Origin: an uncultured Methanosarcinales archaeon | Lineage (GTDB): Archaea; Nanobdellota; Nanobdellia; Woesearchaeales; SM23-78 | Direction: 5' to 3' | NCBI GenBank assembly: GCA_964354085.1 | Contig: CAYGYA010000049.1 | Span: 3,887 to 67,886 of the forward strand | Length of the DNA: 64,000 nt | Part shown: in pieces, positions 9,227-35,756 of the stretch | How the letters are laid out: each line of letters starts with the position of its first letter | How positions within the stretch are numbered: the stretch's first letter is position 1 | Program-made: the position numbers and the translations under genes | Notes under the pieces: model-generated | Databases searched by the model: none | Told to the model about the DNA's origin: nothing | What the model saw: only the letters and a program-made list of their open reading frames with translations

Positions 9227-10630
9227 TCATTTCTTCTTAACCCTGACACCGTCAGCAGTATCTTCAAGAACAAAGCCTTTTGAGCTAATCTCATTCCTTA
9301 ACTTATCAGCAAGCTTGAAATCTTTTTTCTTCCTTGCTTCTTCTCTTTTGTCAACCAGCTCTTGAATCACTTTTGGAACTTCAATCTCTTCTTCTTTTAG
9401 CAAGTCCAAGCCAAACACCTTGTCAAACTTCTCAATCAGCTCAAGTTTTTCCTTGCTGCCAAGCTCAGAATCCTTAATCATGTCATTAAGAAGAGCAACT
9501 GCCTGAGGCATGTTCAAATCATCATTAATCCTTTTCAAGAATTCCTCATCATAATATTTTTTCTTAGCCTTCTTGTCAAGGCTCTTATTTTCTTTCTTAA
9601 GCATTGCAATCCTGTTCTTCAAAGTCTTATAAGCATTATTTGCTCCTTCAACAGCTTCCCAGCTAAAAGTAAGAGGCATTCGGTAATGGGCGCTAAAAGT
9701 AAAATACCTGAAAGCCAAAGGATTGATTCCTTTTTCTATCAGGTCAGCTACTCTTGTAAAGCTTCCCTTTGACTTTGACATCTTGCCCTCTGGGATTACC
9801 AGCCATTCTGCATGCAGCCAGTACTTCACCCAGGGCTTCTTGCCAGTTGCTGCTTCTGACTGGGCAATCTCATTAGTGTGATGAACCTGTATGTGCTCTT
9901 TTCCTCCGCAATGAATGTCAAACTGCTCTCCTAGGTATTTCATGCTCATTGCAGAACATTCAAGATGCCAGCCAGGAAATCCCTTGCCCCAGGGAGAATC
10001 CCATAGCATTATATGATTAGGCTGATTAGTAATCCAAAGAGCAAAATCACTAGAGTTTTTTCTTTCCTCATCTTTCTTGCCTCTTGCTCCTTCTTCCAAT
10101 TGCTCAAGCTTAAGCATTGCCATCTTTGCATAATCCTTGAATTTTGCAGTATCAAAGATTAACCCAACACTAGTATTGTAGGTGTAACCGTTCTTCTCAA
10201 TCTTCTTGACCAGCTCTATCATTTCAGGAACATGCTCAGTAGCCTTGCACCACACATCAGGCTGAAGAATATTTAACCTGATAAAATCATTCTTAAACTC
10301 GTCAAAATACATGTTAGCAAGCTTAACCATCGATTCCTTGGTCAAAGGCAAGCCTTCTCTTTTCAAAGCTTTCATGAGCTTGTCCTCACCTTCATCAGCA
10401 TCAGAAGTCAAATGGCCGACATCAGTGATATTAACCACATGCTTCACCTTGAAGCCATTCAATAGAAGAACTCTCTTAAGCACGTCCTCAAAAACATAAG
10501 TTCTCAGATTGCCAATATGCTGATACCAGTAAACAGTAGGGCCACAGCAATAAACACCCGTAAATCCAGGTTTGACAGGCTTGAACTCCTCTTTCTTCCT
10601 GCCCATAGTGTTAAAGAGCTTTAAACCCAT
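9227..10630 (-). CDS. cysS: cysteinyl-tRNA synthetase
   Basis: N-terminus [18 protein letters not shown] matches the CysRS N-terminus. HIGN motif ([11 protein letters not shown]), KMSKS motif ([10 protein letters not shown]), Zn-binding Cys residues. Confidence 0.9.
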
Positions 10631-10711
10631 AATACAGACTAATAATATATAGGCTTTTTTAAAGGTTGTCATAAAGAAACATTAATAAACCCTCTTATCA
10701 AGATTAGGCTT

Positions 10712-11347
10712 ATGAGCAATTATCAAAGCAATGTTATTGAAGTGAACATCCAGTATGATGCTAACAAGGCTCCTGATTACAAGGCAATCCAAGAGAAGAT
10801 TGATGAGCACTTGAAAAAGCACTTTAAAGGGCAGAAAATTGTTGTTCATCCTATTAGTGGAGAAGAGCATCCTGATAGGAACATTGAGGATGTTCTGAAG
10901 CATCTTCTTGAGCATGGGACTGAAAAAGTTGAAGAAAATATCAAAGAGCAGCCAGGTAAAGAGAACGCATATGATTTCTTGGGCAATTATCACGAGATTC
11001 ATGATAAGTCTGACATAATGAGCGCATATGCCAAGGATAATAAGATGAATGTCGACCTTATTGCTGTTTACGACTCTGAACATGTTGAGAAAATACCTTA
11101 TTCTGACAAATCTAAAGGAATCGGCGATGCTTATAAGTTCAAGCACCCTGACAAGAAGTCATCAGCGCTCAAGGCAGTGCTCAAAATAGTGCCTGAAAAA
11201 AAAGCTGATGAAAAAGAATCAGGAGCAGAGCAAAAGACAGCAATGAAGCCAAAAGAAGGAGCAAACCCAGAGCAAGGAGAACCAACACAAGAAGAGCTTG
11301 AGCAGCTTGCAGCAGAACTTGGCTTAGATTATCAGGGAGCTAACTAA
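10712..11347 (+). CDS. hypothetical acidic protein
   Basis: 211-aa lysine/glutamate-rich ORF. No motif recognised. Confidence 0.4.
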   Translation: MSNYQSNVIEVNIQYDANKAPDYKAIQEKIDEHLKKHFKGQKIVVHPISGEEHPDRNIEDVLKHLLEHGTEKVEENIKEQPGKENAYDFLGNYHEIHDKSDIMSAYAKDNKMNVDLIAVYDSEHVEKIPYSDKSKGIGDAYKFKHPDKKSSALKAVLKIVPEKKADEKESGAEQKTAMKPKEGANPEQGEPTQEELEQLAAELGLDYQGAN

Positions 11348-11409
11348 ACAAAATATTTTTCTTAGGTTTTAAGAATAATTATTTAAACTTATATAACAAG
11401 AATACATGA

Positions 11410-12600: not shown

Positions 12601-13009
12601 CAAAAAAATTTCTGACAAGAAAATGCAAAACTTTTCTAACAACAACTAAAACCTTTAATCAGTTTTGCAAGAAAAATTTTCAATAATGATTTCTCGTATA
12701 TCTTTTCAATAGTGCAAATAACTTTTCAGAAAAGTTTTATAAAAAAAATATTTTTTCGAAAAATTTCAAAATGAAAATATTTAAATATAGGGCTTCACAT
12801 AATAATTATATAAAAAATATAATAGTCGAGAAAAAAAAAATCAAAAAAACTGCTGGAAATCTGGGTGATCGTGTAGACAACTACTACAACGGCAAACATG
12901 AACAATACTTCTAATATTTCTGATGAAAATGATGAAGAGCCTGGCGGCAAACTAGGAGCTTTTACGAGATTTTTCTATTCACAAGCACGAAGGAGGTTTG
13001 ATTTGTAAA

Positions 13010-15106
13010 ATGAACTTAAAAGAATTCTCTGAGAAATTCCCTGATGTCATAGATGAAGTAAAAAAAGTTAGGAAAACTTATCCTATGAAAATTTCTGAAT
13101 ACTATTTAGGGCTTATGAAGGAGAAGAATGACCCTATCTGGAAGCAGTGCATTCCTGACTTGAAAGAGCTTGAAGATAATGTTAATGAGGAAGACCCGTT
13201 ATTAGAGGAAGAGTACAGTCCTGTTCCTTGCCTTGTTCACAGGTATCCTGACAGAGTCCTATTATTGGCTAGCAACAAGTGCGCCATGTACTGCAGGTTC
13301 TGCACAAGAAAGAGAAAGGTTGGCAAGGAAGTAGTGATAAGCAAGGACATGATTGCTAATGCTATTGATTACATTTCAAAGCACAATGAAGTCAGGGATG
13401 TAATAATCTCAGGGGGAGACCCTTTAATGCTTGATGATGATTTCCTGGAATGGATTGTCAAGAGCATCAGGGAGATTCCTCATGTTGAGATTATCAGGAT
13501 TGGAACCAGGGTTCCCTGCACCATGCCAGCAAGGATTACTCCAGAGCTGGTTGATATGCTCAAGAAGTATCATCCTGTTTTTGTTAATGTTCATTTCGAG
13601 CACCCGATGGAGATTACTCCTGAAAGCAAGAAGGCTTGTGAGTTGTTGGTAGATGCAGGCATTCCAGTGGCAAACCAGGCAGTAATGCTCAAAGGAATTA
13701 ATGATGACCCAAAAGTTTTGAGGGAATTATTCCACAAACTCATAGCAATGAGAGTTAAGCCTTATTACTTGTACCAGGCAGACTGCGTCAAGGGAACAGA
13801 GCACTTCAGGACCAGCATTGAACAGGGGCTTGAAGTCATGAAGAGCCTTTATGGTTTTACTTCTGGCATGTGCGTTCCGCAGTTCATGGTTGATGTTCCT
13901 GGAGGAGGAAAGATTCCTCTGCTGCCAGAATACCTGAAGTACAGGAATGATGAAAGCATTGTGCTTGAGAATTTTGAAGGAAAGATTGTTGAGTACAAGA
14001 ACCCATTGACTGTTGAGGAAAAAAAGAAAGCAGCCAATGGAAAGATGAGGATTGCAGTTGCTTTCAACCTCAAGAAAGAAGCTCCTAATGATCAGCCGGT
14101 TGATGCTTTTGCAGATTTCGACGAGATAGATGTGCCATTAGCCATCAAGAAAGCCCTGGAAAAGAAAGGGCATATTGCAGAAATAGTTGAGGCTAATGAG
14201 GAGTTCTTTGAAAAGATAAAGAATGGCAATTATGATTTTGTGTTTAACATGGCAGAAGGATTGAACACAGGAGCAAGAGAGAGCCAGATACCAGCTATTC
14301 TTGACATGCTAGGAATTCCTTACACAGGCTCTGGAATCCTGACCCAGGCAATCACTCTTGACAAGACCAAAACCAAAGAAATATTGACCTATCACGGAGT
14401 TCCTACTCCAAGATACCAGCTTTTCAATCACTGGGATGAGAAGATAAGTTCTGACCTGGTGTTCCCATTGTTTGTCAAGCCAAATGCAGAAGGCTCTTCA
14501 AAGGGAATAAGGAATAATTCTCTTGTTAATAATGAGAAAGAGCTTAAGAAGATGGTGAAGTATGTCATCTCAACCTACAAGCAGCCCGCACTGGCTGAAG
14601 AATACCTTGATGGAAGAGAATTCACAGTTGGAGTGATTGGAAACAGCCCTCCAAGAGTGCTTCCTATTGTTGAGATAACTTTCGACTACCTGCCTGCTGG
14701 GATTAACAAATTTGATTCTTATGAGGTCAAGTGGTATTGGGACAACCCAAACAACCCTGTTGACCCTATTGTGTGCCCTGCAAAAGTTGATGATGAACTC
14801 AAGCAAAGGATTGAGGAAGTAGCCTTGAGAACTTACAAGGTGCTCGGCATTCTTGACTTGTGTAGGATGGACATGAGGCTGGACAAGGAAGGGATACCGC
14901 ACGTCATTGATGTTAATGCCTTGCCAGGCATGATGCCTAACCCAATTGATAACTCAAGATTCCCAAAAGCCTGCTATGCTGCAGGCATGAACTATGACAA
15001 GATAGTCAATACTGTGCTAAACGAGGCTATGAAGAGGTATGGCTTGCTGACAGAGACTAAGAGAGTGAAAAATGAGAGTAGGAATTCTGTACAACTTAGT
15101 CGATAA
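13010..15106 (+). CDS. fusion protein: KamA-family radical-SAM 2,3-aminomutase (N-terminal ~340 aa) + D-Ala-D-Ala-ligase-like ATP-grasp ligase (C-terminal ~350 aa)
   Basis: N-terminal half carries the KamA signature CAMYCRFCTRKR (CxxxCxxC) and the PLP-region IISGGDPL. The C-terminal half restarts with a Ddl-like N-domain (MRIAVAFNLKKE...) and an ATP-grasp core (FPLFVKPNAEGSSKGI, EEYLDGREFTVGVIGN, LCRMDMRLDKEGIPHVIDVNALPG). AGGAGG lies 14 nt upstream of the ATG. Confidence 0.8.
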   Translation: MNLKEFSEKFPDVIDEVKKVRKTYPMKISEYYLGLMKEKNDPIWKQCIPDLKELEDNVNEEDPLLEEEYSPVPCLVHRYPDRVLLLASNKCAMYCRFCTRKRKVGKEVVISKDMIANAIDYISKHNEVRDVIISGGDPLMLDDDFLEWIVKSIREIPHVEIIRIGTRVPCTMPARITPELVDMLKKYHPVFVNVHFEHPMEITPESKKACELLVDAGIPVANQAVMLKGINDDPKVLRELFHKLIAMRVKPYYLYQADCVKGTEHFRTSIEQGLEVMKSLYGFTSGMCVPQFMVDVPGGGKIPLLPEYLKYRNDESIVLENFEGKIVEYKNPLTVEEKKKAANGKMRIAVAFNLKKEAPNDQPVDAFADFDEIDVPLAIKKALEKKGHIAEIVEANEEFFEKIKNGNYDFVFNMAEGLNTGARESQIPAILDMLGIPYTGSGILTQAITLDKTKTKEILTYHGVPTPRYQLFNHWDEKISSDLVFPLFVKPNAEGSSKGIRNNSLVNNEKELKKMVKYVISTYKQPALAEEYLDGREFTVGVIGNSPPRVLPIVEITFDYLPAGINKFDSYEVKWYWDNPNNPVDPIVCPAKVDDELKQRIEEVALRTYKVLGILDLCRMDMRLDKEGIPHVIDVNALPGMMPNPIDNSRFPKACYAAGMNYDKIVNTVLNEAMKRYGLLTETKRVKNESRNSVQLSR

Positions 15107-16067
15107 AGTTGATCACGGCAAGGACCTTGACAAACTGGCAGACAACGAAGTTCTAGAAACATCTAAAGCTGTCAAAGCTGCTCTTGAAAAGAGAAGTCAT
15201 GCTGCTGTCCTTGAAAAGATTAACCCTGATGAATTGGAAAAATTAAAGCAAAAGTATGACCTGATTTTTAATCTTGCAGAAGGGATTGGAGGCGACCCAT
15301 TAAAGGAGCCTGAGATTGCTGCTGTTTTTGAAAAAGCAGGCTTGCCTTTCACAGGAGCAGGCTCAAAAGCACTTGCACTATGCCTTAACAAGGAAAAAGC
15401 CAAGGAAGTACTGATAAAAAATAATATACCAACGCCAAAATACCAGCTTATCAAGAAGCTGCCTGCAAAAAAAAATAAGGATTTGAAATACCCCTTGATT
15501 ATAAAGCCAGTGCATGAAGACGGAAGTATTGGCATAAACTCTGATTCTGTTGTTAATGATGATCCAAGCTTTGAAAAGAAAGTCAATGAGATACTTGAGG
15601 TTTACAAGCAGCCAGCCCTGGTTGAAGAATATATTGATGGGCGAGAAATTAACGTGGGGATTCTTGGCAATGGTAAGGGCATAGAAGCTCTTCCTCTCTC
15701 AGAGATAATATTTGATTTTCCAGAAGGAGTTCCTAAAATTGTTTCTTTTGAAGCCAAATGGATTGAAGAGTCAGCTCTGTGCAAGAAAAGCATAGGAAAA
15801 TGCCCTACAAATGTTCCAGAGCAAATAAGGAATAATATAGTTGAGCTTGCAAAAAAAGCATTCCTGGCAATGGGATGTGCAGACTATGGGCGAGTTGATT
15901 TCAGGCTCAGGGGAGAAGAATTGTTTGTCCTCGAAGTCAATCCAAATCCTTGCATCAACCCCGACGGAGCAGGGTTTATACGCTCTGCAAATGCAGCAGG
16001 CTACACCTATGATGACATCATCAACAAGATTGTTGAGCTTGCACTGAAGCGTTATTCTAATTCTTAG
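15072..16067 (+). CDS. D-Ala-D-Ala-ligase-like ATP-grasp ligase, paralog 2
   Basis: MRVGILYNL start, YPLIIKPVHEDGSIGI, EEYIDGREINVGILGN, GRVDFRLRGEELFVLEVNPNPC. Overlaps the upstream fusion gene by 35 nt. Confidence 0.75.
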   Translation: MRVGILYNLVDKVDHGKDLDKLADNEVLETSKAVKAALEKRSHAAVLEKINPDELEKLKQKYDLIFNLAEGIGGDPLKEPEIAAVFEKAGLPFTGAGSKALALCLNKEKAKEVLIKNNIPTPKYQLIKKLPAKKNKDLKYPLIIKPVHEDGSIGINSDSVVNDDPSFEKKVNEILEVYKQPALVEEYIDGREINVGILGNGKGIEALPLSEIIFDFPEGVPKIVSFEAKWIEESALCKKSIGKCPTNVPEQIRNNIVELAKKAFLAMGCADYGRVDFRLRGEELFVLEVNPNPCINPDGAGFIRSANAAGYTYDDIINKIVELALKRYSNS

Positions 16068-16229
16068 AAAAAATTTAGAATAAAATTCTGAATAATAAAA
16101 ATAATTTGAAAACATTTTTAAAGCTCTAAAATAAATTATTATATGTAAAAAAATATTACGACGAGAAAAATATTTGATAAAAAAATTATAAAAAACAAAA
16201 AACGGATAATTTTTTGGGGAAAATTCATT

Positions 16230-17255
16230 ATGAAAGTAGTTATTGTTTATTCAGACGGGGAAGTTGCATCGCATACATCTGCTGATTACAAGGGAAGAAC
16301 TGATGACGCTAACATACAGAACGTGAACGACGCTCTGATTAGCCTAGGCCACGAAGTAATCAGGGTGGTTGCTGACGAGACAATATTCCAGAAATTACTT
16401 GAGCTAAAGGACAGCACAGACATAGTCTTTAACCTTGCAGAGGAAGGATATAAGCAGGACATCCACACAGAGCCTCACATGGCTGCGCTGCTGGAGATGC
16501 TGGGCTTCAAGTTCACAGGCTCAAATTATTTATGCCTTGCAAACTGCCTTGACAAGGCAAGGGCAAAACAATTGTTTGTGGTGAATGGATTATCAACACC
16601 CAAGTTCATTATCTTCAACAAGGAAATAAATGCGGATGTAAAAATAAATGGATTAACCTTCCCGTTGATAGTCAAGCCTGGAAAGAGCGACGGCAGCGTA
16701 GGCATAAGGCGTAATTCTGTTGTTGAAGATGTAGAAAGCCTGGTATTAAGAGTGAATGAGGTTATCCAGACCTATGAACAACCAGCACTTGTGGAAGAAT
16801 TCATTGACGGCAGGGAGATAAATGTGGGAATATTCGGAAACAAAAGGCTCACAGTGCTTCCGATGTCTGAAATAATATTCAATCTTAAACCTGAAGAAAG
16901 AAATTTCCTGCCTTACGAGGCTAAATGGCTTACCAGGACCAAGTATTACAAAGGCACAACTCCGCAATGCCCAGCAGAAATAGAGCCTGGCCTGAAAGCA
17001 GAGATTGAAGAGCTTGCAAGAAAAGCTTACACTCTCATGGGAGTGAGAGGCTATGGAAGAGTTGATTTCAGGATTGACGCTAACAATAAGCCTTACATCC
17101 TAGAAGTAAATCCTAATCCTGATATATCTAGTGACGCAGGGCTTTCAAGGATGATAGCTGCCCACGGGATTACATATAAAGAACTAATAGAGAAGATTGT
17201 CAGGATGGGCATCAACAAGGACGAGCAGGAGTTCAGGATAATTATCTATGAATAA
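16230..17255 (+). CDS. D-Ala-D-Ala-ligase-like ATP-grasp ligase, paralog 3
   Basis: FPLIVKPGKSDGSVGI, EEFIDGREINVGIFGN, GRVDFRIDANNKPYILEVNPNPD. Clearly paralogous to the two upstream ATP-grasp units. Confidence 0.75.
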   Translation: MKVVIVYSDGEVASHTSADYKGRTDDANIQNVNDALISLGHEVIRVVADETIFQKLLELKDSTDIVFNLAEEGYKQDIHTEPHMAALLEMLGFKFTGSNYLCLANCLDKARAKQLFVVNGLSTPKFIIFNKEINADVKINGLTFPLIVKPGKSDGSVGIRRNSVVEDVESLVLRVNEVIQTYEQPALVEEFIDGREINVGIFGNKRLTVLPMSEIIFNLKPEERNFLPYEAKWLTRTKYYKGTTPQCPAEIEPGLKAEIEELARKAYTLMGVRGYGRVDFRIDANNKPYILEVNPNPDISSDAGLSRMIAAHGITYKELIEKIVRMGINKDEQEFRIIIYE

Positions 17256-17305
17256 AATGCTTATTTTCTAATTCACAAATCTTTATATATTACTTGTTGC
17301 TCTAA

Positions 17306-18937
17306 TTGGTAATGCCTGTTAGAAAGAATCATTCCAACAAAAAATTTATTGTTGTCACAGGCGGTGTTCTCTCTGGCTTGGGAAAAGGAGTTGCTGCAGC
17401 TACAATTGGAAACCTGATAACAAAGGCAGGATTAAGAGTTATTCCTATTAAGTGCGACGGCTATCTTAATGTTGACCCCGGCACTATGAATCCTATTGAG
17501 CATGGCGAAGTATTTGTTCTTGATGATGGCGGAGAAGTTGACATGGACTTTGGCCATTATGAAAGATTTCTTGGCGTTACCTGCAAATTCAACTGGAATC
17601 TTACCATGGGCAAGGTTTATGAAGCAATAAGAACTAAGGAGAGGCGCGGTGATTATCTTGGAAAAACAGTCCAGCTCATACCCCATGTTACTGATTTGAT
17701 TAAGGATTGGTTCTACAAGGTTGCTGAGGATGAAAAAGCAGATGTTGTGATGATAGAAGTAGGAGGAACTGTCGGCGATATTGAGAATGAATTATATATT
17801 GAGGCTTGCAGAGAATTAAAAAGAGAAGTTGGCCATGAGAATATTCTTTATGTTCACCTGACTTATGTTCCTATTCCTACTAATGTGCATGAGCAAAAGA
17901 GCAAGCCAACTCAGCAATCAGTAATCCTGCTAAGAGAAAGAGGGATTGAGCCTGACATAATAATAGGCAGGTGCGCAGAATACCTTGATGAGAAGATAAA
18001 GAACAAGATAAGTGTTTTCTGCGATATAGAGCAAAAAGCAGTAATCACAGGCCTGGATGTTGACTGCGTCTACAAGATACCAGTTGTTTTCTCAGATGAA
18101 GGGATTAATTACATAATAAAGGAAAGATTGGGAATTGATTCTGGAGTCAAGCCCGAATGGAAGAAATTAGTTGATAACTTGTCAAAGCTTGACAAAGAAT
18201 TGAATATTGCAATATGTGGCAAGTATACTAAGCTCGAGGACTCATATGCTAGCATTCTCGAAGCCTTGAAGCACTGCAGCGCAAATCTGAAAGCAAAGAT
18301 TAATGTGAAAATGATAGAGACAACTGACGTGAACAATCAGGAAGATGCAAAAAAATTACTCAAGGGTATTGACGGAGTAATTGTTCCTGGAGGCTTTGGA
18401 AGCAGAGGAGTAGAAGGCAAGATAGAAGTGATACGTTATTGCAGAGAGAAAAACATTCCATTCCTAGGGCTTTGCTATGGACTCCAGCTTGCAACAGTTG
18501 AGTTTGCTCGTAATGTTTGCGGATTAAAAGATGCAAACACAACTGAAGTTGATGAGAAAACCAAATATCCTGTGATTGACATAATGCCTGAGCAGAAGAA
18601 CATAGAGAACAAGGGCGGGACAATGAGACTTGGAGCTTATCCTGCTGTCATGAAAGAAAAAACAATTATCTGGGAGCTCTATGGCAAGCAAAAAGAAGTT
18701 AGTGAAAGGCACAGGCACAGGTATGAAGTAAATCCTGAATACCACGAGATACTGCAAAAGCATGGATTAATATTCTCAGGCATGAGCCCTGACAAAAGAT
18801 TAGTTGAATTCATTGAATTGCCAAAGGAAAAGCACAAATACTTTGTAGGAACACAAGCACATCCAGAGCTAAAGAGCAAATTAGAAAAGCCAGGGCCACT
18901 ATTCTATGGACTGGTTAAGGCTTGCTTGGAGAAATAG
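17306..18937 (+). CDS. pyrG: CTP synthase
   Basis: FIVVTGGVLSGLGKG P-loop, synthetase-domain motifs, and a C-terminal glutamine amidotransferase with LGLCYGLQL (catalytic Cys) and HRHRYEVN. Confidence 0.9.
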   Translation: MVMPVRKNHSNKKFIVVTGGVLSGLGKGVAAATIGNLITKAGLRVIPIKCDGYLNVDPGTMNPIEHGEVFVLDDGGEVDMDFGHYERFLGVTCKFNWNLTMGKVYEAIRTKERRGDYLGKTVQLIPHVTDLIKDWFYKVAEDEKADVVMIEVGGTVGDIENELYIEACRELKREVGHENILYVHLTYVPIPTNVHEQKSKPTQQSVILLRERGIEPDIIIGRCAEYLDEKIKNKISVFCDIEQKAVITGLDVDCVYKIPVVFSDEGINYIIKERLGIDSGVKPEWKKLVDNLSKLDKELNIAICGKYTKLEDSYASILEALKHCSANLKAKINVKMIETTDVNNQEDAKKLLKGIDGVIVPGGFGSRGVEGKIEVIRYCREKNIPFLGLCYGLQLATVEFARNVCGLKDANTTEVDEKTKYPVIDIMPEQKNIENKGGTMRLGAYPAVMKEKTIIWELYGKQKEVSERHRHRYEVNPEYHEILQKHGLIFSGMSPDKRLVEFIELPKEKHKYFVGTQAHPELKSKLEKPGPLFYGLVKACLEK

Positions 18938-19084
18938 AGTTTTCTTGAAATTACATCCTTCTAGTCCAATTGTTCTTATTTGCTAATCAAAAACCCACTC
19001 GTAATTAAACATAACCGGTAAAGCATTTAAATATGATAAAGTATTTAAATTTTGCTTTAAAGGATAGTCTTGAGGAGGGTGTGA

Positions 19085-19738
19085 TTGAAAAACATAAATA
19101 TTGAAAATCAAAGGAGTGGAGAATCTCGAGCATATGCTTCTCTAGAAGGGGATGTTAGGAACCTTATTAAAGCATTCATGAAGTCAGATGACAAAAGTTT
19201 AGTAATCCCTTACACTGGAAAAAGGCTTTCTGCAATAAATGAGTGGAAGAGAATGAGGTTCAACCCAAAGCTTTTTTTTAACTGTATTGTTACCGAGATG
19301 CTTAAAAAATTGCCTCCTTCTAACTTCAAGAATTCATGTTACAGGCTGCTAGGGTTTAAGATAGGTCGTGACGTAGCAATATGCAATGACGTTCATATTG
19401 ATCCTTTTTTCCCGGAACTGACAATTATCGGCGATGGTGTCCTTTTGGGATACAAATCCACAATTAATGTTCATGACTATGTTATGAGAGATCTGAAAGT
19501 CGGGAGGGTTGTAATCAATAGCGGCTCTCTAATAGGAGGCAGGTCGCTGGTGAACTGCGGGGTGACTATAGGCAAGAACTGCGTTGTGGCAATCAACAGC
19601 GTTGTTGATCATGACATACCTGATAATACTGTAGTGGGAGGAAATCCCTTGAAAAAGCTTATAACTCTTCAGGAAGGAGAGATTTTCCGTTTCAAAAAGG
19701 CATACATCGGTAAAGATGGGCTTGAGCACGAGTATTGA
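19085..19738 (+). CDS. hexapeptide-repeat (left-handed beta-helix) acyl/acetyltransferase
   Basis: Repeated [LIV]G..... hexads: IGDGVLLGYKSTINVHD, VINSGSLIGGRSLVNCGVTIGKNCVVAINSVV, VVGGNPLKKL. The listed ORF starts at TTG; an ATG 31 codons in is an alternative start. Confidence 0.6.
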   Translation: MKNINIENQRSGESRAYASLEGDVRNLIKAFMKSDDKSLVIPYTGKRLSAINEWKRMRFNPKLFFNCIVTEMLKKLPPSNFKNSCYRLLGFKIGRDVAICNDVHIDPFFPELTIIGDGVLLGYKSTINVHDYVMRDLKVGRVVINSGSLIGGRSLVNCGVTIGKNCVVAINSVVDHDIPDNTVVGGNPLKKLITLQEGEIFRFKKAYIGKDGLEHEY

Positions 19739-19766
19739 AACGAAAATTTGGCTGTTTAAGGAAAAT

Positions 19767-20126
19767 ATGTATATCGGGACTGATTGTGAGGATATTGAAA
19801 GGTTTGAAAACCTTGAAAAGCAGTTTATTTCTAAAGTGTTTTCAAGGAAAGAAACTGATTATTGCCTGTCCACACAAAAGCCTGCTGAGCATTTTGCTGT
19901 AAGGTTTGCTGCAAAAGAAGCAGTAATAAAAGCATTTATGCAGGCAGGCTGTAGCATAGGATTGGATTTGTGTGACATAGAAATCCTTAAAGACCGTGCG
20001 GGAGTTCCTTTTGCCAAGCTGCATGCTGATAAGCAAGATAAATTAAACAGCTACACCATAAGGGTTAGCATGTCGCATTCAAAAAATATGGCTTTGGCTT
20101 TTGCAATAGTTTTTCAGAAAAATTAA
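19767..20126 (+). CDS. acpS: holo-ACP synthase-type 4'-phosphopantetheinyl transferase
   Basis: YIGTDCEDIERFE is the AcpS GxDxxE Mg site. FSRKETDYC, FAAKEAVIKA, LDLCDIEILKD...GVPF and the C-terminal VSMSHSKNMALAFAIV match the AcpS fold signature. ~119 aa from the internal Met. Confidence 0.65.
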   Translation: MYIGTDCEDIERFENLEKQFISKVFSRKETDYCLSTQKPAEHFAVRFAAKEAVIKAFMQAGCSIGLDLCDIEILKDRAGVPFAKLHADKQDKLNSYTIRVSMSHSKNMALAFAIVFQKN

Positions 20127-20153
20127 TAAACCGCAACGCCAGTTAAGGTTTTC

Positions 20154-21977
20154 ATGAGTGATTTTTTTGAAGAAAAGTCCTTGCTTGACAAGCTTACCTT
20201 TGAGTCTCCCATCTATGATTATATTTCTGCTTATTCAAAATTGCATTCCCTGGACCTATCGCCGCTCAAGCTGAAAAAGCTAAGAATCGCTTTTGTCTGC
20301 AGTTTCACTATTTCAAACATTGAAAAAGTTTTTTTCACTCTCTGCATAAAAAACAACATCATGCCTGAGTTTTACTTCTCGGATTATAACCAGTATACCC
20401 AGGACATCTTAGACGAAAAGAGCAAGCTATACTCTTTTCACCCCGATATTACTTTTCTGTTTATTGATTCAAGAGCCCTGCTTGCGGAATCATATTTTGT
20501 TCCTTATCCTTCCTCTGAAGAAAGCATGAAAAAAAATGCTGAGGAAATTACCAATTATCTTATTAATTTGGTTGACAAGCTTCAAAAATTTTGCCCCAAA
20601 ACAGTTGTTCATAACCTGGAAATACCTTTCTATTCACCCCTGGGAATTGCGGAAAACAAGGAGGCTTTCGGGTTTTTGGATATTTTTTCATCAGTAAACA
20701 ATGCTTTAAGAAAAAAGTATGAGGAAAACAGCTCTGTTTTTGTTTTTGATTTTGACCAGTTCCTGTCTAAAATAGGCAAAGAAAATGCATTTGATTACAA
20801 GATGTATTATTTAGGTGACATGAAGATTGCCATGCAAATCTTTCCAAAACTGGTAAACGAATACCTGGCATATCTTATTCCTACAGCCTCCTTTACAAGA
20901 AGGTGCATTGTCCTTGACCTGGATAACACTCTTTGGGGAGGAAATGTGGGAGATGATGGGTTTAATGGAATTCAGCTTGGCCCAAAGCCTCCTGGGAACC
21001 AGTTCATGGATTTCCAAAAACATCTCCTGGCCCTGCACAATAGGGGCATTCTCCTGGCTATCAACAGCAGCAACAACTATGAGGAAGCAATGAATGTGAT
21101 TGAGAAACACCAGTTCATGGTATTAAAGAAAAAAAATTTCTCATCGATTAAGATAAACTGGGAGCCAAAAGATGAGAATATGAAGAATATCGCTAAGGAG
21201 ATTAACATAGGACTTGATTCCTTTGTTTTCATAGATGACCTAGCAGAGAACAGGGAAAGAATCAAGGAGCTGCTTCCTGAAGTTGAGACGATAGATATGC
21301 CTGAAGATCCTGCCCTTTATACAAAAACGCTTCTTGACCTAAAATTGTTTTCATCATTTGCAATTACTGAGGAAGACTTCTGCAGGGGCGAACTGTATGC
21401 CCAGCGAAGCCAGCGTGACAGTTTAAGACTATCATCTAACAGTATGGAGAAATTCTTAGAGAATCTGGGATTGTCAGTCAATATTGCACAGGCAGACTTG
21501 CCTTCAATTCCAAGGATTTCCCAGCTATGCATGAAAACCAACCAATTCAACGTCACCACAAGAAGATATTCTGAATCAGACATCAAAGCATTTTATGAAA
21601 ACAATAATTGCGTAGTATACCAATTGGATGCAACTGACCGCTTTGGCGACCATGGGCTGGTAGGAGTTTGTATCATAAAAAAAGAGGGTGACAAGGCGTT
21701 CATTGACAGCTTTTTGCTGAGTTGCAGAGTTATGGGATTTCATATAGAAAATGCTTTTTATAATTATGTTGCAGATGACCTAAAGAAGCAGGGTATTACA
21801 AGCATATCTTCTCTCTACATCCCTACTACAAAAAATTCTCCTGTAAAGGATTTGTACGCCTCGTTTGGTTTTAGCAAGGCAAAGGAAAATGATGATGGTT
21901 CAGTTCAATGGGATAAAAGCCTACAGGATTTCACACCTGAGTATCCCAAATGGATTTTAATGGAGATAAAAAAATGA
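20154..21977 (+). CDS. FkbH-like protein (HAD-IIIC phosphatase domain + C-terminal acyl/GNAT-like domain); predicted glyceryl-S-carrier-protein loading enzyme
   Basis: The FkbH/HAD-IIIC signature CIVLDLDNTLWGGNVGDDGFNGIQLG is an exact match to the family core. LAINSSNN and FIDDLAENRE complete the HAD motifs. 607 aa is typical of FkbH proteins. Confidence 0.7.
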   Translation: MSDFFEEKSLLDKLTFESPIYDYISAYSKLHSLDLSPLKLKKLRIAFVCSFTISNIEKVFFTLCIKNNIMPEFYFSDYNQYTQDILDEKSKLYSFHPDITFLFIDSRALLAESYFVPYPSSEESMKKNAEEITNYLINLVDKLQKFCPKTVVHNLEIPFYSPLGIAENKEAFGFLDIFSSVNNALRKKYEENSSVFVFDFDQFLSKIGKENAFDYKMYYLGDMKIAMQIFPKLVNEYLAYLIPTASFTRRCIVLDLDNTLWGGNVGDDGFNGIQLGPKPPGNQFMDFQKHLLALHNRGILLAINSSNNYEEAMNVIEKHQFMVLKKKNFSSIKINWEPKDENMKNIAKEINIGLDSFVFIDDLAENRERIKELLPEVETIDMPEDPALYTKTLLDLKLFSSFAITEEDFCRGELYAQRSQRDSLRLSSNSMEKFLENLGLSVNIAQADLPSIPRISQLCMKTNQFNVTTRRYSESDIKAFYENNNCVVYQLDATDRFGDHGLVGVCIIKKEGDKAFIDSFLLSCRVMGFHIENAFYNYVADDLKKQGITSISSLYIPTTKNSPVKDLYASFGFSKAKENDDGSVQWDKSLQDFTPEYPKWILMEIKK

Positions 21978-22210
21978 GCAAGCTATTCGAGATTGTCGGG
22001 AAAATACTTGGCGCAAATCCTTTAAAAATAAATGATGAAAGTTCAGCAGCAACTTTAAGCGAATGGGACTCGATGAATAATCTCGTCATTTTCTCTGCCA
22101 TAGAAAAGGAATTCAATGTGAAATTCACCATGAAAGAGATTAATTCTGTAAAGAATCTTGGCGCTGTGAAACAACTATTAATGGCAAAGACAGGAAGATC
22201 TGATTTTTAA
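21974..22210 (+). CDS. acyl/peptidyl carrier protein (PP-binding)
   Basis: 78-aa 4-helix-sized ORF with LSEWDSMNNLVIFSAIEKEF. The Ser in DSM sits at the start of helix 2, as in ACP/DltC. Start overlaps the FkbH stop (ATGA), indicating translational coupling. Confidence 0.6.
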   Translation: MSKLFEIVGKILGANPLKINDESSAATLSEWDSMNNLVIFSAIEKEFNVKFTMKEINSVKNLGAVKQLLMAKTGRSDF

Positions 22211-22255
22211 ACTTATTTTATACGAGATTAATCAAGGCTTGCCTGGAGAAATAGT

Positions 22256-23041
22256 TTATTTCTTTCTGCACACATAAATAGAGAAGATGGGTATTCTTGT
22301 GAATATATTGTATTCTTCAGGATTGTATTTCTTGAAAGACTGTACTGGCTTACAATCAATAATGTCAATCAGTTCAAAACCTGCCTGCCTTATTGCTTTC
22401 AAAATGATCCTAAAACTTCTTTGGTGCTCCTTGGTTATCATTCCAGGAACCATTTCATAGTTGGTTATGGCTTCAGAAAAAGCATTTCCCAAGTCAATTC
22501 TCTTATTAGTTCTCTTATCAACAACGTATCCTAATCCACGGATTCTCAGGTTCTCATCTTCATAATACTCCCTTGCTGAAGCTATTGGGCTAAGGCAAGA
22601 AAAAAACAATTCACCTGCTTTTTTAAGCACCCTGCCAGCTTCTCTAAAGGCTTTATCAAGGTTATCAACATGGTCAATGCAAAGGCTCGATGTGACTATA
22701 TCAAAGAATTTATTTTCATACGGAAGCTTCTCAGCAGAGCCAACTATAAACTCTGCTCCTTTGCATCGCACTTTTGCAAGCTCAATCATAGTCTTGCTAA
22801 CATCCATGCCCCACACTTTTGCTCCTCTTCGTAAGTATTCTTTTGCATGCACTCCTGCTCCGCAACCAACATCCAACAGTTTCTTGCCCCTTATATTGCC
22901 TATTGCTTTGAACATACAAGGCATTTCAAGAAATTCATTAAAAGCTCTCTCTGCCTTATGTTTTTCTCGGCTCTTCTGGTATTCTGCCCCAAATTCATCA
23001 TACATTCTTTTTGTGTATTTTTCAATAGATTTGCTTGACAT
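22256..23041 (-). CDS. class I SAM-dependent methyltransferase
   Basis: Motif I LLDVGCGAGVHA, an acidic motif II GMDVS, and motif post-I/IV FDIVTSSLCIDHV. Confidence 0.7.
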   Translation of the reverse strand: MSSKSIEKYTKRMYDEFGAEYQKSREKHKAERAFNEFLEMPCMFKAIGNIRGKKLLDVGCGAGVHAKEYLRRGAKVWGMDVSKTMIELAKVRCKGAEFIVGSAEKLPYENKFFDIVTSSLCIDHVDNLDKAFREAGRVLKKAGELFFSCLSPIASAREYYEDENLRIRGLGYVVDKRTNKRIDLGNAFSEAITNYEMVPGMITKEHQRSFRIILKAIRQAGFELIDIIDCKPVQSFKKYNPEEYNIFTRIPIFSIYVCRKK

Positions 23042-23627
23042 TTTTCACACTCTCCTCAACCAGTTCATCAATATCCAGTTTAGCTTCCTCATACTCAACC
23101 TTCTCAAGCCGTGAAGTTGTTGCTGGATGCGATGGCAGGAATGGGCAGCCAGGGCTTTTCTGGATTGACATTTCATAGGTTCCTAATTTCCTGGCTAATT
23201 TGATTGTATCGTTCTTGTCAAAGCCTAGCAAGGGTTGCAACACAGTCATCTTGACTGCTCCTTGTATTACTGCCATATTATCAAGAGTCTGGCTTGCTAC
23301 CTGGCCCATGTTCTCCCCTGTTATTATGAAATCGCACTTCTGCTTTTCAGCAAGCTTTTCTGCTATCCTTAGCATCATTCTCTTGCAATAGATGCAGGTG
23401 TAACGAGGATTGCACTTTTCTCTATAAGCATCATGTGCAAATCTTAGCTCTGCAAAAAATAAGTGCTGCACATTTACCTTTTTTGCCAAATCAATAACTT
23501 TCTGATTTTCTTTTTCATTATCCCAGAAATTCAGGTGGAGAGCAATTAACTCAACGCCTTTCTCTGCTGCCAATTTGCCAGCTACTGGGCTGTCAATTCC
23601 TGAGCTGAGCAATAACAAGCCTTTCAT
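23022..23627 (-). CDS. ThiI-like PP-loop ATP pyrophosphatase domain protein (tRNA sulfurtransferase catalytic domain without THUMP)
   Basis: PP-loop LLSSGIDSPVA, ITGENMGQVASQTLDNM and LQPLLGFDKNDTIKLARKLGT match the ThiI C-terminal domain. Start at internal Met MKGLL. Confidence 0.6.
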   Translation of the reverse strand: MKGLLLLSSGIDSPVAGKLAAEKGVELIALHLNFWDNEKENQKVIDLAKKVNVQHLFFAELRFAHDAYREKCNPRYTCIYCKRMMLRIAEKLAEKQKCDFIITGENMGQVASQTLDNMAVIQGAVKMTVLQPLLGFDKNDTIKLARKLGTYEMSIQKSPGCPFLPSHPATTSRLEKVEYEEAKLDIDELVEESVKNVKQIY

Positions 23628-23735: not shown

Positions 23736-24596
23736 ATGACTGGAAAACATAATTCTCGTCGATACAATAAAAAGTCTGATGAGAAGAAAGGATTGACTAT
23801 AGGTCACTTGGGAGTAACTGGGTTAGCATGTGCAACAGGATTGGCTGCATTCCTGAGACCTTATAACATTTCAAATAGCTATGTCGCTGAACAATTTAAA
23901 AATACTCCTAGTATTACAAGACCTGTTCAAACACAAGCTTCAAAGCCTGTGCAACCAATCATCACTCAATACAATAAACCTAGCACAACAGATTATAATA
24001 CTCTTGTTGAAAAGATAAGAGAGGACGCTAGCAACATCCAGCCTGCTAACTACAAGAATTATCTGGAATCTAGCTTAGAACGAGTGCTTGAGCAATGGTA
24101 TGGCACTAAGTGGTCTATGAACGGAGCTTCGCAGCAGCCAAGAAAGGGGAGCGTGGGCTGCGATTATCTTGTAATCAGGGCTTTAGAGGCTCTGGGATAT
24201 AATTTTGACAAGCATGAGCTTGGCTGGGAAACAATTACACAAAACCCTACCAACTGGCTAGCCTCTGAGAACATAGTAAAGGCTGCATCCAGCCAGGTAA
24301 GAGAATTCTGGGGTATGTCATACAAGAACTTAAAAAGATATCTTAATATTCAAGGCAATGGCATTTACGCTTTAGGCACAGATACACATGTAGGTTTCTT
24401 ACAAAAAAAAGGTAACGATTTGTATTTCTACCACAGCAGCCAAAGGCCTCACGGTAAAGTTGTAAAGGAAAAAGCAGACAATGTATCTACGTTAAAACAT
24501 TCAAATGTCTATGTTATTGGAAAACTTTTCACTCCCGATATGTATGACAGGTATTTTCAGAAAGAACCAAAGCCTGTGAGCGCTAGCGGAATGTAA
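23736..24596 (+). CDS. hypothetical protein, probably membrane-anchored/secreted
   Basis: N-terminal hydrophobic segment LTIGHLGVTGLACATGLAAFL, then a polar Thr/Gln/Pro-rich linker and a globular C-terminus. Confidence 0.4.
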   Translation: MTGKHNSRRYNKKSDEKKGLTIGHLGVTGLACATGLAAFLRPYNISNSYVAEQFKNTPSITRPVQTQASKPVQPIITQYNKPSTTDYNTLVEKIREDASNIQPANYKNYLESSLERVLEQWYGTKWSMNGASQQPRKGSVGCDYLVIRALEALGYNFDKHELGWETITQNPTNWLASENIVKAASSQVREFWGMSYKNLKRYLNIQGNGIYALGTDTHVGFLQKKGNDLYFYHSSQRPHGKVVKEKADNVSTLKHSNVYVIGKLFTPDMYDRYFQKEPKPVSASGM

Positions 24597-34238: not shown

Positions 34239-35756
34239 CTAGATTAAAGCCTGTGAAGAACTATGATGTGACAAACTTTTCAGATATTTCATATATGCCT
34301 TGTTCTGCATTAACCATTTGTTCACTATCTGCCTTCCTCCTACTCTTAGCAATGCAGGTTCAAATGAGGGCAGTTTAATTATTGGAAGCTTAATTGCAGG
34401 CAACTTTACTGTTGGCAAATGAGGCATATGCGGCATACGAGGTAAATGTGGCAAGCGCACTTTAGAATACATGCCCTTGGCTGTTGTCACAGCCGAATCA
34501 ATAAAAGCATCAACTGTTTTCTTCATTGCATTGGTGTATGAATAAAATTCTGCAAAGCATTTTATCATTCCATGCTGAAGCTCATGGGCACTCATTTGGC
34601 TGGGCTTGAAAACAGCGTGCAAGCCGTCATAATATTGCCAGTCAGTGTGCAAAAGCCTTTGCTCATTCAACAGCTTGAAATAGGTCTGAGTGCCTGGCAG
34701 AGGAGTGAGTATAGCGTACTGCACAGAATCAAGGTCGCTCTTATGGCAGAATTCAGAAGTGTTCTTGAAAACATCCTTGTCGTCAGCATCATTCCCAAGC
34801 ATGAACATTCCATGTATGGCTATTCCACGGTCATGAAAAACTTTTATTGCCCTCTCAACATCCTGGCGAGTCTGGTGCTTATTCATATCCCGCAGACTCT
34901 TATCATTAATTGATTCAAACCCAATATAAACTCTTTCGCAGCCTGCTTCTCTCATCTTTGCAACAAACTCAGGGTTCCTGGTTACATCTGATCTTACTTG
35001 CGCGCCCCAAGGCCTACTAAATCCTTTTTCAAGCATTAGGTCAAGAATTCTGTTAGTTCTGGTAAGGTTAGCTGCAAAGTGGTCATCTGCAAAAAACACA
35101 TATCCTTTCTTGAATTGCATAATCTCATCAATAACTCTTTCTGGGCTCTGGGTCCTGTATTTTCTTCCAAACATCTCTGTTACTGCGCAAAAATTGCAAC
35201 CATAAGGGCAACCTCTTGATGACATGACAGAATGAGTGAATCCTTTTTTCCATCCCTGGACTAGGTTAAAATCAGGTATTGGAAACTCGTCAAGATTCTC
35301 TGGCCTTTGCGCATAAACAATCTTATCCTTAAATCTGCCTGCAAGGAGGTCAAGGATTATGTGCTCTGCTTCTCCAACAACAACCTGGTCAAAATAAGGA
35401 ACAACATCATTGGGAATTGTGCTTGCATGAATGCCTCCAATAATAGCTCTTGAGTCAAGTCCTCTGGATTTTCTTATTGCCTTGTACTGCTTTGCAATCT
35501 CCTTGCCTCTTGTTGAGGTTGCTGTTATGCAGCTCAGGCAGAGAATGTCTGCACTTTCAAGCTCTTTTTCTGAAATATTCCTCCTAAGGATATTCTCATT
35601 AAGCACAACAGCATCATAGCCAGCTCTCTGAGCAATTGTTGCAAGATAAACAGGCCCTAATAATGGGATAGTCATGCTTTTGGCAAATACATTAGAAGCA
35701 GCTCCTCTTGGCTCTACAAAAACAACCTTTTTATTTCTAATTGTTTTATGCTCCAT
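34239..35756 (-). CDS. B12-binding-domain radical SAM protein (class B radical SAM)
   Basis: N-terminal Rossmann-like cobalamin-binding region (VVFVEPRGAAS...LGPVYLA), radical-SAM cluster CPYGCNFC, and a repetitive Pro-rich C-terminal tail. Confidence 0.75.
   Translation of the reverse strand: MEHKTIRNKKVVFVEPRGAASNVFAKSMTIPLLGPVYLATIAQRAGYDAVVLNENILRRNISEKELESADILCLSCITATSTRGKEIAKQYKAIRKSRGLDSRAIIGGIHASTIPNDVVPYFDQVVVGEAEHIILDLLAGRFKDKIVYAQRPENLDEFPIPDFNLVQGWKKGFTHSVMSSRGCPYGCNFCAVTEMFGRKYRTQSPERVIDEIMQFKKGYVFFADDHFAANLTRTNRILDLMLEKGFSRPWGAQVRSDVTRNPEFVAKMREAGCERVYIGFESINDKSLRDMNKHQTRQDVERAIKVFHDRGIAIHGMFMLGNDADDKDVFKNTSEFCHKSDLDSVQYAILTPLPGTQTYFKLLNEQRLLHTDWQYYDGLHAVFKPSQMSAHELQHGMIKCFAEFYSYTNAMKKTVDAFIDSAVTTAKGMYSKVRLPHLPRMPHMPHLPTVKLPAIKLPIIKLPSFEPALLRVGGRQIVNKWLMQNKAYMKYLKSLSHHSSSQALI

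Follow-up and report, generated by a model that had tools for sequence, protein, structure and literature searches.

Four tightly packed genes on the forward strand of a 64-kb stretch of archaeal DNA (contig CAYGYA010000049.1; this whole stretch is the sequence analysed here and is called the window) occupy the interval 19085–22210 and encode a left-handed beta-helix (LbH) acyltransferase, an AcpS-type 4′-phosphopantetheinyl transferase (PPTase), an FkbH-like enzyme and an acyl carrier protein (ACP). On balance, we favour the view that the four genes constitute one autonomous, horizontally acquired acylation cassette, in which glyceryl-S-ACP would be generated and the LbH enzyme would off-load glycerate onto an acceptor encoded elsewhere. 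The cassette is a minimal FkbH–ACP–AcpS–LbH variant related to widespread, essentially uncharacterised glycan-associated FkbH units. An earlier note, made from the sequence, had proposed such a four-membered module at this place; all four open reading frames (ORFs) are indeed there on the forward strand, with family scores above the cutoffs, so that its observation is confirmed and its interpretation partly supported. Loci of the relatives that were compared with the window bear L-numbers (L001, etc.). The elements discussed below are as follows:

18917–18937, forward strand: left 21-nt direct repeat AAGGCTTGCTTGGAGAAATAG, the last 21 nt of pyrG including the stop codon
18938–19084, forward strand: intergenic leader, AT-rich, with TATA-like TTTAAATA at 19026–19033 and TTTAAAT at 19045–19051 (read from the sequence)
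19085–19738, forward strand: LbH acyltransferase, 217 aa; helical N-terminal region 'YRLLGxKIGR' (Pfam Hexapep_2)
19767–20126, forward strand: AcpS-type PPTase, 119 aa (TIGR00556, TIGR00516)
20154–21977, forward strand: FkbH-like three-domain enzyme, 607 aa (FkbH_N, HAD-IIIC phosphatase domain, C-terminal GNAT-fold domain)
21974–22210, forward strand: ACP, 78 aa, with Ser33 as the predicted phosphopantetheine site (PF00550, alignment)
22234–22254, forward strand: right 21-nt direct repeat AAGGCTTGCCTGGAGAAATAG, 20/21 identical to the pyrG end and lying 23 nt past the ACP stop

FkbH-Like Enzyme, Carrier Protein and AcpS

The FkbH-like protein scored 311.5 bits against TIGR01686 ('FkbH domain', cutoff 146.65), 71.7 against the HAD-IIIC family TIGR01681 (cutoff 35.75) and 46.1 against Pfam FkbH_N (PF21211, cutoff 27). 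The LDLDNTLWGG signature of HAD-IIIC, to which the earlier note had drawn attention, is found at residues 254–263, and the HAD-IIIC residues comprise D255, D257, T259 (read from the sequence), S305, K339 and D361–D362. We aligned the protein with two homologues from Woesearchaeota, one from Nanoarchaeota, one deltaproteobacterial protein, the plasmid-encoded proteins of Clostridium perfringens and Sinorhizobium meliloti, and the homologue from a Bacillus zwittermicin-type cluster of nonribosomal peptide synthetase (NRPS) and polyketide synthase (PKS) genes, which we take to be ZmaN. D255, D257, S305, K339 and D361–D362 turned out to be invariant, as did S523–C524–R525 in the C-terminal domain; the S-C-R motif was also invariant in 31 closer homologues. 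The C-terminal cysteine expected of an FkbH enzyme is thus present as C524, and the protein does not look like a plain HAD phosphatase. A search of the PDB with the sequence of the C-terminal domain returned nothing meaningful, and fold comparison revealed a GNAT fold. Cys524 is located at a strand end, directly before the R-x-x-G-x segment that follows beta-4, and this segment is presumably the pantetheine pyrophosphate binding site, as general knowledge of GNAT folds would have it. Such a position suits a cysteine handing an acyl group to a phosphopantetheine thiol.

In the carrier protein, D32–S33 aligns with D35–S36 of Escherichia coli AcpP and is invariant in the 7 sequences of an alignment that took in ACPs adjoining FkbH homologues in archaea, Clostridium and Sinorhizobium, so that the serine required of a genuine carrier is both conserved and aligned. 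The carrier is translationally coupled to FkbH through an ATGA overlap, as previously suggested: the FkbH stop codon occupies 21975–21977 and the carrier ATG 21974–21976 (read from the sequence). It is 33–45% identical to the ACPs found downstream of FkbH in L001, L002, L091, L092 and L093.

The predicted PPTase, noted earlier directly upstream of FkbH, scored 86.3 against TIGR00556 (cutoff 45.35) and 70.9 against TIGR00516 (cutoff 59.8). It matches Bacillus subtilis AcpS and the PPT domains of fungal fatty acid synthases (FAS) at E of about 1e-10 and keeps the aligned GxD and AKEAxxK motifs (IGTDcEdi and faAKEAviKa vs. vGvDvEsv and wtAKEAifKs in the fungal FAS domain). Its ORF spans 19716–20126, with an alternative ATG at 19716 that overlaps the LbH gene; the true start is likely the ATG at 19767 (MYIGTDCEDIERF), the same as called in L005. 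Since the motifs hold in all three alignments, FkbH, ACP and AcpS represent a genuine set, not a plain HAD phosphatase beside a chance small ORF.

Among the loci compared, AcpS homologues were found only in L005, L002–L004, L091 and L093; in archaeal L002, L091 and L093 they (77–86 bits) lie directly upstream of FkbH. AcpS is thus present in the archaeal versions (window, L005, L002, L091, L093) and absent from bacterial L092, L009, L010 and L096, the exception being archaeal L001, which has no AcpS within the 8 kb of flank examined. This distribution, seen in a small sample, fits a need to bring the PPTase into PPTase-less hosts.

A Repeat-Bounded Insert in a Variable Slot of an Archaeal Genome

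The cassette is flanked on both sides by archaeal genes, namely those for NMD3, DUF460, an archaeal helicase, fibrillarin, Nop5, deoxyhypusine synthase, aRF1, topoisomerase VI A/B and RIO kinase, and the 64 kb also hold the housekeeping genes for PRPP synthetase and CysRS. Because the remainder of the window consists of archaeal housekeeping genes, the archaeal assignment of the contig is safe; the close relatives of the backbone genes carry the name Woesearchaeota, and the host genome, placed by its relatives, looks Woesearchaeota-like. An exact look-up of the window FkbH itself returned no database record. A 505-aa B12-binding radical-SAM protein is encoded amid the housekeeping genes at 34239–35756 on the reverse strand.

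The cassette follows pyrG (17306–18937) after the 147-bp AT-rich leader, in the order LbH, AcpS, FkbH, ACP, and the genes are closely packed or overlapping behind this single leader, as read from the sequence. A Shine-Dalgarno-like box GAGGAGGG at 19072–19079 lies 5 nt ahead of the TTG start codon of the LbH gene, and the 3′ ~60 nt of the leader are conserved in L005. We infer a promoter role for the leader. A scan for sigma-70 promoters and terminators stayed at background level, the sigma-70 consensus not being applicable to archaea.

The two 21-nt direct repeats bound an insert of 3317 bp. A pattern search for the repeat gave only two matches in 64 kb vs. 0.00 expected, and the pattern was not found in the other loci except at the pyrG end of L005, where a degraded remnant of the right repeat is also seen at the equivalent junction. 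L005 encodes four cassette proteins 85–90% identical to those of the window and shows the same order (KamA/ATP-grasp genes, pyrG, LbH, AcpS, FkbH, ACP), with flanks that differ from the window on both sides. L094, L095 and L098 keep the backbone without the cassette: NMD3 through CysRS, three KamA/ATP-grasp genes and pyrG on one flank, and thiI, fibrillarin and Nop5 on the other. In L098, which is 93.3% identical at the DNA level, collinearity extends up to the pyrG stop (window 18936) and a DUF1846 gene occupies the slot; in L094 and L095, glnA (reverse strand) and asnC come directly after pyrG, and a GNAT gene is also there in L094 and L005. The slot that the cassette fills, right after pyrG, is variable, and the cassette can be gained or lost there as a unit.

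Compared with L005, L094, L095 and L098, the whole pyrG–thiI interval (window 18937–23043) is hypervariable: the window has the cassette and a methyltransferase gene, L005 the cassette and glnA–asnC–GNAT. L094 contains a 49-aa copy of the PyrG C-terminus at 20823–20969. A 286-aa protein with an N-terminal hydrophobic segment and no Pfam match, encoded at 23736–24596, is found beside thiI in L098 as well (~76% nt identity). The convergent methyltransferase gene (22256–23041) was considered as a cassette member by analogy with O-methylated glyceroyl groups and was rejected: it is located beyond the repeats that bound the insert, L005 lacks it, and its product has only generic similarity to cassette-linked methyltransferases.

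In nucleotide identity of the backbone, L005 and L094 are sisters (91%) and the window stands outside (87%); between the window and L005, cassette genes are 87–88% identical. Presence in the common ancestor and a later clean loss from L094, with recombination across the repeats as an obvious route, would fit this pattern, and so would transfer between lineages. In GC and GC3 the cassette is like its neighbours, so that composition speaks neither for nor against transfer. There is no integrase or other gene for mobility close by, and the integration mechanism is one that we infer. The dN/dS values for the window vs. L005 (LbH 0.09, AcpS 0.30, FkbH 0.09, ACP 0.16; pyrG 0.07) show that all four cassette genes are under purifying selection.

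Related FkbH Units Elsewhere

More than 7,000 database proteins match the window FkbH at E <= 1e-10, and a search of genome contigs with the protein returned only one locus, a distant deltaproteobacterial one. Of the 120 best homologues, which are all 44–49% identical to it, at least five are named as woesearchaeal or nanoarchaeal, and the AcpS–FkbH–ACP core is also present in the archaeal metagenome-assembled genomes (MAGs) looked up (L002, L091, L093). To call such a module highly atypical in an archaeon, as had been done, is therefore an overstatement. Bacterial-type ACP-dependent genes in DPANN archaea have already been reported (PMC10936187, PMC8204110).

We read the neighbourhoods of the closest homologues in the archaeal MAG loci L001, L002, L091 and L093 and in bacterial L092. 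They share a recurring unit, [AcpS]–FkbH–ACP–MaoC dehydratase–aminoglycoside-type (Antibiotic_NAT) N-acyltransferase. In L002, L091 and L093 this unit is embedded among sugar-nucleotide genes, surrounded by those for UDP-sugar dehydrogenases, a GFO/IDH/MocA oxidoreductase, a DegT aminotransferase, a hexapeptide or formyl transferase, a 2-epimerase and glycosyltransferases. In L001 it adjoins NeuB/CMP-transferase genes, a methyltransferase, a short-chain dehydrogenase/reductase (SDR) and a DUF2172/DUF4910 protein. L092 is a bacterial flagellin-glycosylation island, where the unit stands beside fliS, a Maf-like MptE protein, a DUF2172 protein and lptF/G; there MaoC is fused to the N-acyltransferase, and AcpS is missing. 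The identity of the window FkbH to such glycan-context homologues is about 46–48%, vs. 27–29% to the PKS-context ones of actinomycetes, Methylosinus and Bacillus.

The MaoC dehydratase always follows the ACP in the glycan units (L001 10058–11207; L002, L091 and L093 around 10040–11350; L092 10041–11276). MaoC, together with SDR in L001, suggests that glycerate loses water while on the carrier and may also be reduced, to a group of the lactyl or pyruvoyl type, prior to transfer, a chemistry absent from the window cassette.

FkbH–ACP pairs also occur with other partners. On Sinorhizobium meliloti pSymA (L010 4205–9239), an MBOAT protein, a gene annotated as a TonB-dependent receptor, an ACP and an FkbH-like protein stand together, a layout consistent with an acyl donor for envelope modification; on a Methylosinus plasmid (L096), a tetronate-type cassette combines FkbH–ACP with ketosynthase III (KSIII) and E2. 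That FkbH–ACP pairs go with exchangeable transferases (N-acyltransferase, MBOAT, KSIII/E2) fits a donor-module model.

In the window, no counterpart of MaoC, the Antibiotic_NAT N-acyltransferase, KSIII, E2-like, DUF2172 or SDR proteins was found (tblastn being used for MaoC, the N-acyltransferase, KSIII and E2-like). The 64 kb also contain no ketosynthase, PKS, NRPS, FkbG/I/K-type, FabH-like or E2-like gene. A scan of ORFs over the 64 kb found none of the methoxymalonyl partners (3-hydroxyacyl-CoA dehydrogenase, acyl-CoA dehydrogenase, O-methyltransferase, PKS), and the KSIII and E2-like proteins of Methylosinus, which L096 has as tetronate partners, gave no match in the window by tblastn. With no partner enzymes in the window, the methoxymalonyl and tetronate roles that had been brought up for this trio are inapplicable here.

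The LbH Acyltransferase

The LbH protein scored 31.8 against Pfam Hexapep_2 (cutoff 27). Its best NCBIfam family is the YvoF-type NF058585, with 100.6 bits over the full profile length, which is far under the cutoff of 300; although this family scores best, the protein is not a YvoF equivalog. It also falls below the cutoff of TIGR02353, the terminal domain of Pls/PosA NRPS (42.4 vs. 423.1), and is free-standing. Nevertheless, in a genuine Pls/PosA NRPS each of the three LbH repeats is 31–35% identical to it (E 8e-16), the 'RLLGxKIGR' helix included. These repeats, homologues of the free-standing window protein, are terminal and lie beside the carrier domain. The synthetase in question, a metagenomic single-module enzyme (L075 360–4457), comprises adenylation, thiolation and three LbH repeats and gives 603 bits with TIGR02353. 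The LbH repeats of Pls act on carrier-bound acyl thioesters. Weak NCBIfam matches were obtained to LpxA and LpxD, which are LbH enzymes using acyl-ACP. His130 is conserved.

The LbH subfamily is small: among 1.84 billion cluster representatives, 352 matched at E <= 1e-10 and 15 at E <= 1e-30. The closest relatives sit in a recurrent uncharacterised cluster (L012 4442–9853; L013 9325–16300; L017; L046; L100 1–10654), which contains one or two YvoF/Pls-like LbH proteins (fused in L046), a PTA_PTB phosphate acyltransferase and 1–6 tandem proteins of ~270–520 aa with a PEP-utilizers mobile domain. A stand-alone PPDK_N protein (L012), an isochorismatase (L100) and an anthranilate-synthase-like gene (L012) are found nearby. 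The window, too, encodes a 462-aa protein (40324–41712) whose sole match is the PPDK_N ATP-binding domain of pyruvate phosphate dikinase, the domain that occurs as a separate protein in these clusters.

Proposed Mechanism and Alternative Explanations

AcpS, using CoA, would install the phosphopantetheine arm on Ser33 of the carrier. FkbH would take 1,3-bisphosphoglycerate (1,3-BPG) and form a 3-phosphoglyceryl thioester on Cys524 of its GNAT-fold domain, from which the HAD-IIIC domain, with Asp255 as the nucleophile and Asp257 as the acid/base, would remove the 3-phosphate to leave glyceryl-S-Cys524. The glyceryl group would then pass from Cys524 to the carrier thiol, giving glyceryl-S-ACP. 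Finally, the LbH enzyme, with His130 as the general base, would take over the carrier-bound glyceryl group and join it to an amine or hydroxyl of an acceptor whose genes lie elsewhere. The acceptor may be a sugar in a glycan of the cell surface or, alternatively, a membrane lipid.

In view of the conserved motifs and family membership, the AcpS and FkbH steps, i.e. formation of the holo-carrier and of glyceryl-S-ACP, are probable. Off-loading by LbH we regard as evenly balanced; it is suggested by the operon structure, the self-contained repeat-bounded insert, the homology to Pls/PosA and the interchangeable transferases of other FkbH loci. Glycerate is the substrate to be expected by analogy with characterised relatives of about 27% identity. 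As for the acceptor, the contexts of the relatives favour a surface glycan, and the resemblance to YvoF weakly suggests a lipid; decoration of a surface glycan or lipid, raised earlier as one option, is the reading best supported by the relatives' context. With a PPTase of its own, the cassette should be functional in a host that has no other carrier-protein system.

Several results weigh against the proposed scheme. The best structural and sequence relatives of the LbH protein are CoA-dependent O-acetyltransferases. FkbH, ACP or AcpS was found within 10 kb in none of the 80 metagenomic loci with LbH relatives (27–46% identity), and the second-closest relative (48% identity) belongs to an unrelated cluster of PEP-utilizer-domain proteins, phosphate acyltransferase and isochorismatase; because LbH relatives elsewhere have no FkbH, ACP or AcpS nearby, the LbH–FkbH/ACP association is specific to the window lineage. 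An AlphaFold2 model of the LbH protein, built on a 7-sequence alignment, had a pLDDT (predicted local distance difference test) of 46 and was discarded. The carrier passes PF00550 marginally (21.9 vs. a cutoff of 20.8). The identity of FkbH to the biochemically characterised enzymes is ~27%, at which another acyl-phosphate substrate is possible. Lastly, the ORFs scanned in the 64 kb include no sugar-nucleotide, glycosyltransferase or lipid genes, i.e. no acceptor pathway.

Part of these data would be accounted for if the LbH protein were not the off-loader but a CoA-dependent acetyltransferase, tailoring the ACP-bound glycerate in the way of the O-methyltransferases of other FkbH pathways or acetylating an unrelated acceptor, with glyceryl-S-ACP used by an enzyme elsewhere. 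The best PDB match falls in the maltose O-acetyltransferase family, and the closest solved relatives are the maltose and galactoside O-acetyltransferases, users of acetyl-CoA; in the loci examined, LbH relatives outside the window lineage are never linked to ACP or FkbH, and the off-loader of other FkbH cassettes is of a different class, the aminoglycoside-type N-acyltransferase. On the other hand, the repeats enclose these four genes and no others, and the insert passes on as one unit; a donor module that reached a new host without a transferase would serve no purpose there; the window offers none of the other transferases or the MaoC dehydratase; and homologous LbH domains end a Pls/PosA synthetase beside its carrier domain. 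We consider this explanation unlikely.

Another possibility involves the genes upstream of pyrG. At 12998–17255, the window encodes a KamA-type radical-SAM aminomutase fused to a Ddl-like ATP-grasp ligase (702 aa), followed by two Ddl-like ATP-grasp genes. This block is conserved at 50–98% identity in Woesearchaeota, Nanoarchaeota, Thermoplasmatota, Methanocellales and a few bacteria. When aligned to Clostridium subterminale lysine 2,3-aminomutase (PDB 2a5h), the KamA domain is seen to keep D293 and D330, residues that we take from the literature on that enzyme to mark a lysine-type aminomutase; the enzyme probably makes beta-lysine, which would then be ligated to another molecule. Because L094, L095 and L098 carry the block without the cassette, it belongs to the backbone and not to the insert, and its link to the cassette is one of proximity; that the carrier system feeds these ATP-grasp ligases, as once suggested, is accordingly disfavoured. 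The cassette, the KamA/ATP-grasp genes and a major facilitator superfamily (MFS) transporter might still form one cluster, for example, for N-glyceroylation of an exported beta-lysine-containing peptide: the genes are close (12998–22210), on the same strand and in the same order in L005, the lysine-type Asp residues mean that an amine acceptor would be available, and Pls-type LbH domains are reported to form amide bonds to lysine amines. Yet the block is widely conserved and persists with pyrG in loci devoid of the cassette, the housekeeping pyrG separates the two, the cassette has its own leader and repeat-bounded limits, and the MFS gene is absent in L005, L094 and L095, all of which makes a joint cluster very unlikely.

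It is highly improbable that the cassette is decaying cargo of an old integration, without present function. No integrase or mobility gene adjoins it, the slot after pyrG differs in cargo between relatives, and the right repeat is degraded in L005; but the four ORFs are intact in two genomes that are ~12–13% apart in nucleotides, their dN/dS values (0.09–0.30) are similar to that of pyrG, and all the catalytic residues are kept. Finally, the classical supply of glyceryl-ACP for a methoxymalonyl extender unit or a tetronate ring of a polyketide or nonribosomal peptide, though the only biochemically established use of FkbH with ACP (PMC9057759, PMC7489565) and though a long FkbH with an N-terminal domain is also found in tetronate-type cassettes such as that of L096, is hardly credible here given the lack of any partner gene in the 64 kb, an FkbH nearer to the glycan-context than to the PKS-context homologues, and a genome context that looks small and housekeeping.

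Starting from the four-gene acylation cassette that we favour, a broader proposal can be made, which at present is doubtful: the LbH protein, a free-standing enzyme of Pls/YvoF-like type, may have been recruited to act in trans as the catalyst of release in a minimal thiotemplate system (PPTase, loader, carrier and LbH) that travels between DPANN genomes as a 3.3-kb plug-in and glyceroylates, or builds short glycerate esters on, an envelope lipid or glycan. If true, archaea would have in this cassette their first envelope acylation system dependent on a carrier protein, and LbH would have a new activity, that of a glyceryl-ACP:acceptor transferase.

FkbH/ACP pairs are textbook polyketide precursor modules; that they serve much more widely as donors of acyl groups in the decoration of glycans or envelopes is barely documented. 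The window cassette is the smallest self-sufficient version among the loci compared, four genes including its own PPTase, and is thus a convenient system for finding out which acyl group the glycan-type FkbH enzymes load and how it is released from the carrier. It also illustrates how DPANN archaea acquire whole sets of bacterial-type carrier-protein chemistry as exchangeable cargo in one fixed slot of the chromosome, which bears on surface variation in DPANN episymbionts. The finding overturns no view of archaeal biology; rather, it is a compact and tractable entry point to the non-polyketide uses of glyceryl-ACP.

Comparison with Known Systems

FkbH together with a stand-alone ACP yields glyceryl-ACP in the tetronate and methoxymalonyl pathways (PMC7489565), and in the case of OzmB the reaction proceeds from 1,3-BPG through phosphoglyceryl-S-enzyme and glyceryl-S-enzyme to glyceryl-ACP (PMC9057759). 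With such FkbH/OzmB/ZmaN-type pairs the window shares the HAD-IIIC motifs (DxDxT, S, K, DD), the S-C-R cysteine and an adjoining dedicated small ACP, and the chemistry leading from 1,3-BPG via glyceryl-S-enzyme to glyceryl-S-ACP is presumed to be common to both. It differs from them in the low identity (~27%), the LbH partner, its own AcpS and the archaeal host.

The LbH enzyme has the 'RLLGxKIGR' helix and the beta-helix architecture in common with the terminal LbH domains of Pls/PosA and with Bacillus YvoF, a heptaprenylglycerol O-acetyltransferase. It differs in scoring below both family cutoffs and in being free-standing and soluble, without the transmembrane segments or the adenylation and thiolation (A-T) domains of Pls.

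The system on pSymA (L010) resembles the Dlt system, with FkbH replacing the adenylating loader, and, just as in the window, FkbH and a small ACP are coupled there to a non-PKS transferase. This transferase is a membrane MBOAT and not an LbH protein, the FkbH identity is 27%, and the L010 system itself is uncharacterised.

The flagellin glycosylation locus of Campylobacter jejuni includes an fkbH-domain gene, cj1302 (PMC7099621), and formation of di-O-methylglyceroyl-pseudaminic acid there requires cj1295 (PMC3068675); N-glyceroyl pseudaminic acid is known from Tannerella as well, its genes in that case being described as unknown (PMC5378307). The window likewise has an fkbH-domain gene, a likeness drawn from the published descriptions. 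Cj1295 is described as aminopeptidase-like, and so is, according to Pfam, the DUF2172/DUF4910 protein of L001 and L092. In contrast to the C. jejuni locus, in which the roles of cj1299–cj1302 are themselves not demonstrated, the window lacks a DUF2172 protein, an N-acetyltransferase of that type and genes for nonulosonic acids.

The closest homologues are those of the glycan units of DPANN archaea and bacteria (L001, L002, L091, L092, L093), whose FkbH proteins are 46–47% identical to that of the window and with which the window cassette shares the AcpS–FkbH–ACP core, in the same order and with overlapping genes. Where these units continue with MaoC and the Antibiotic_NAT transferase in a sugar-nucleotide setting, the window cassette does not, and has an LbH transferase upstream instead.

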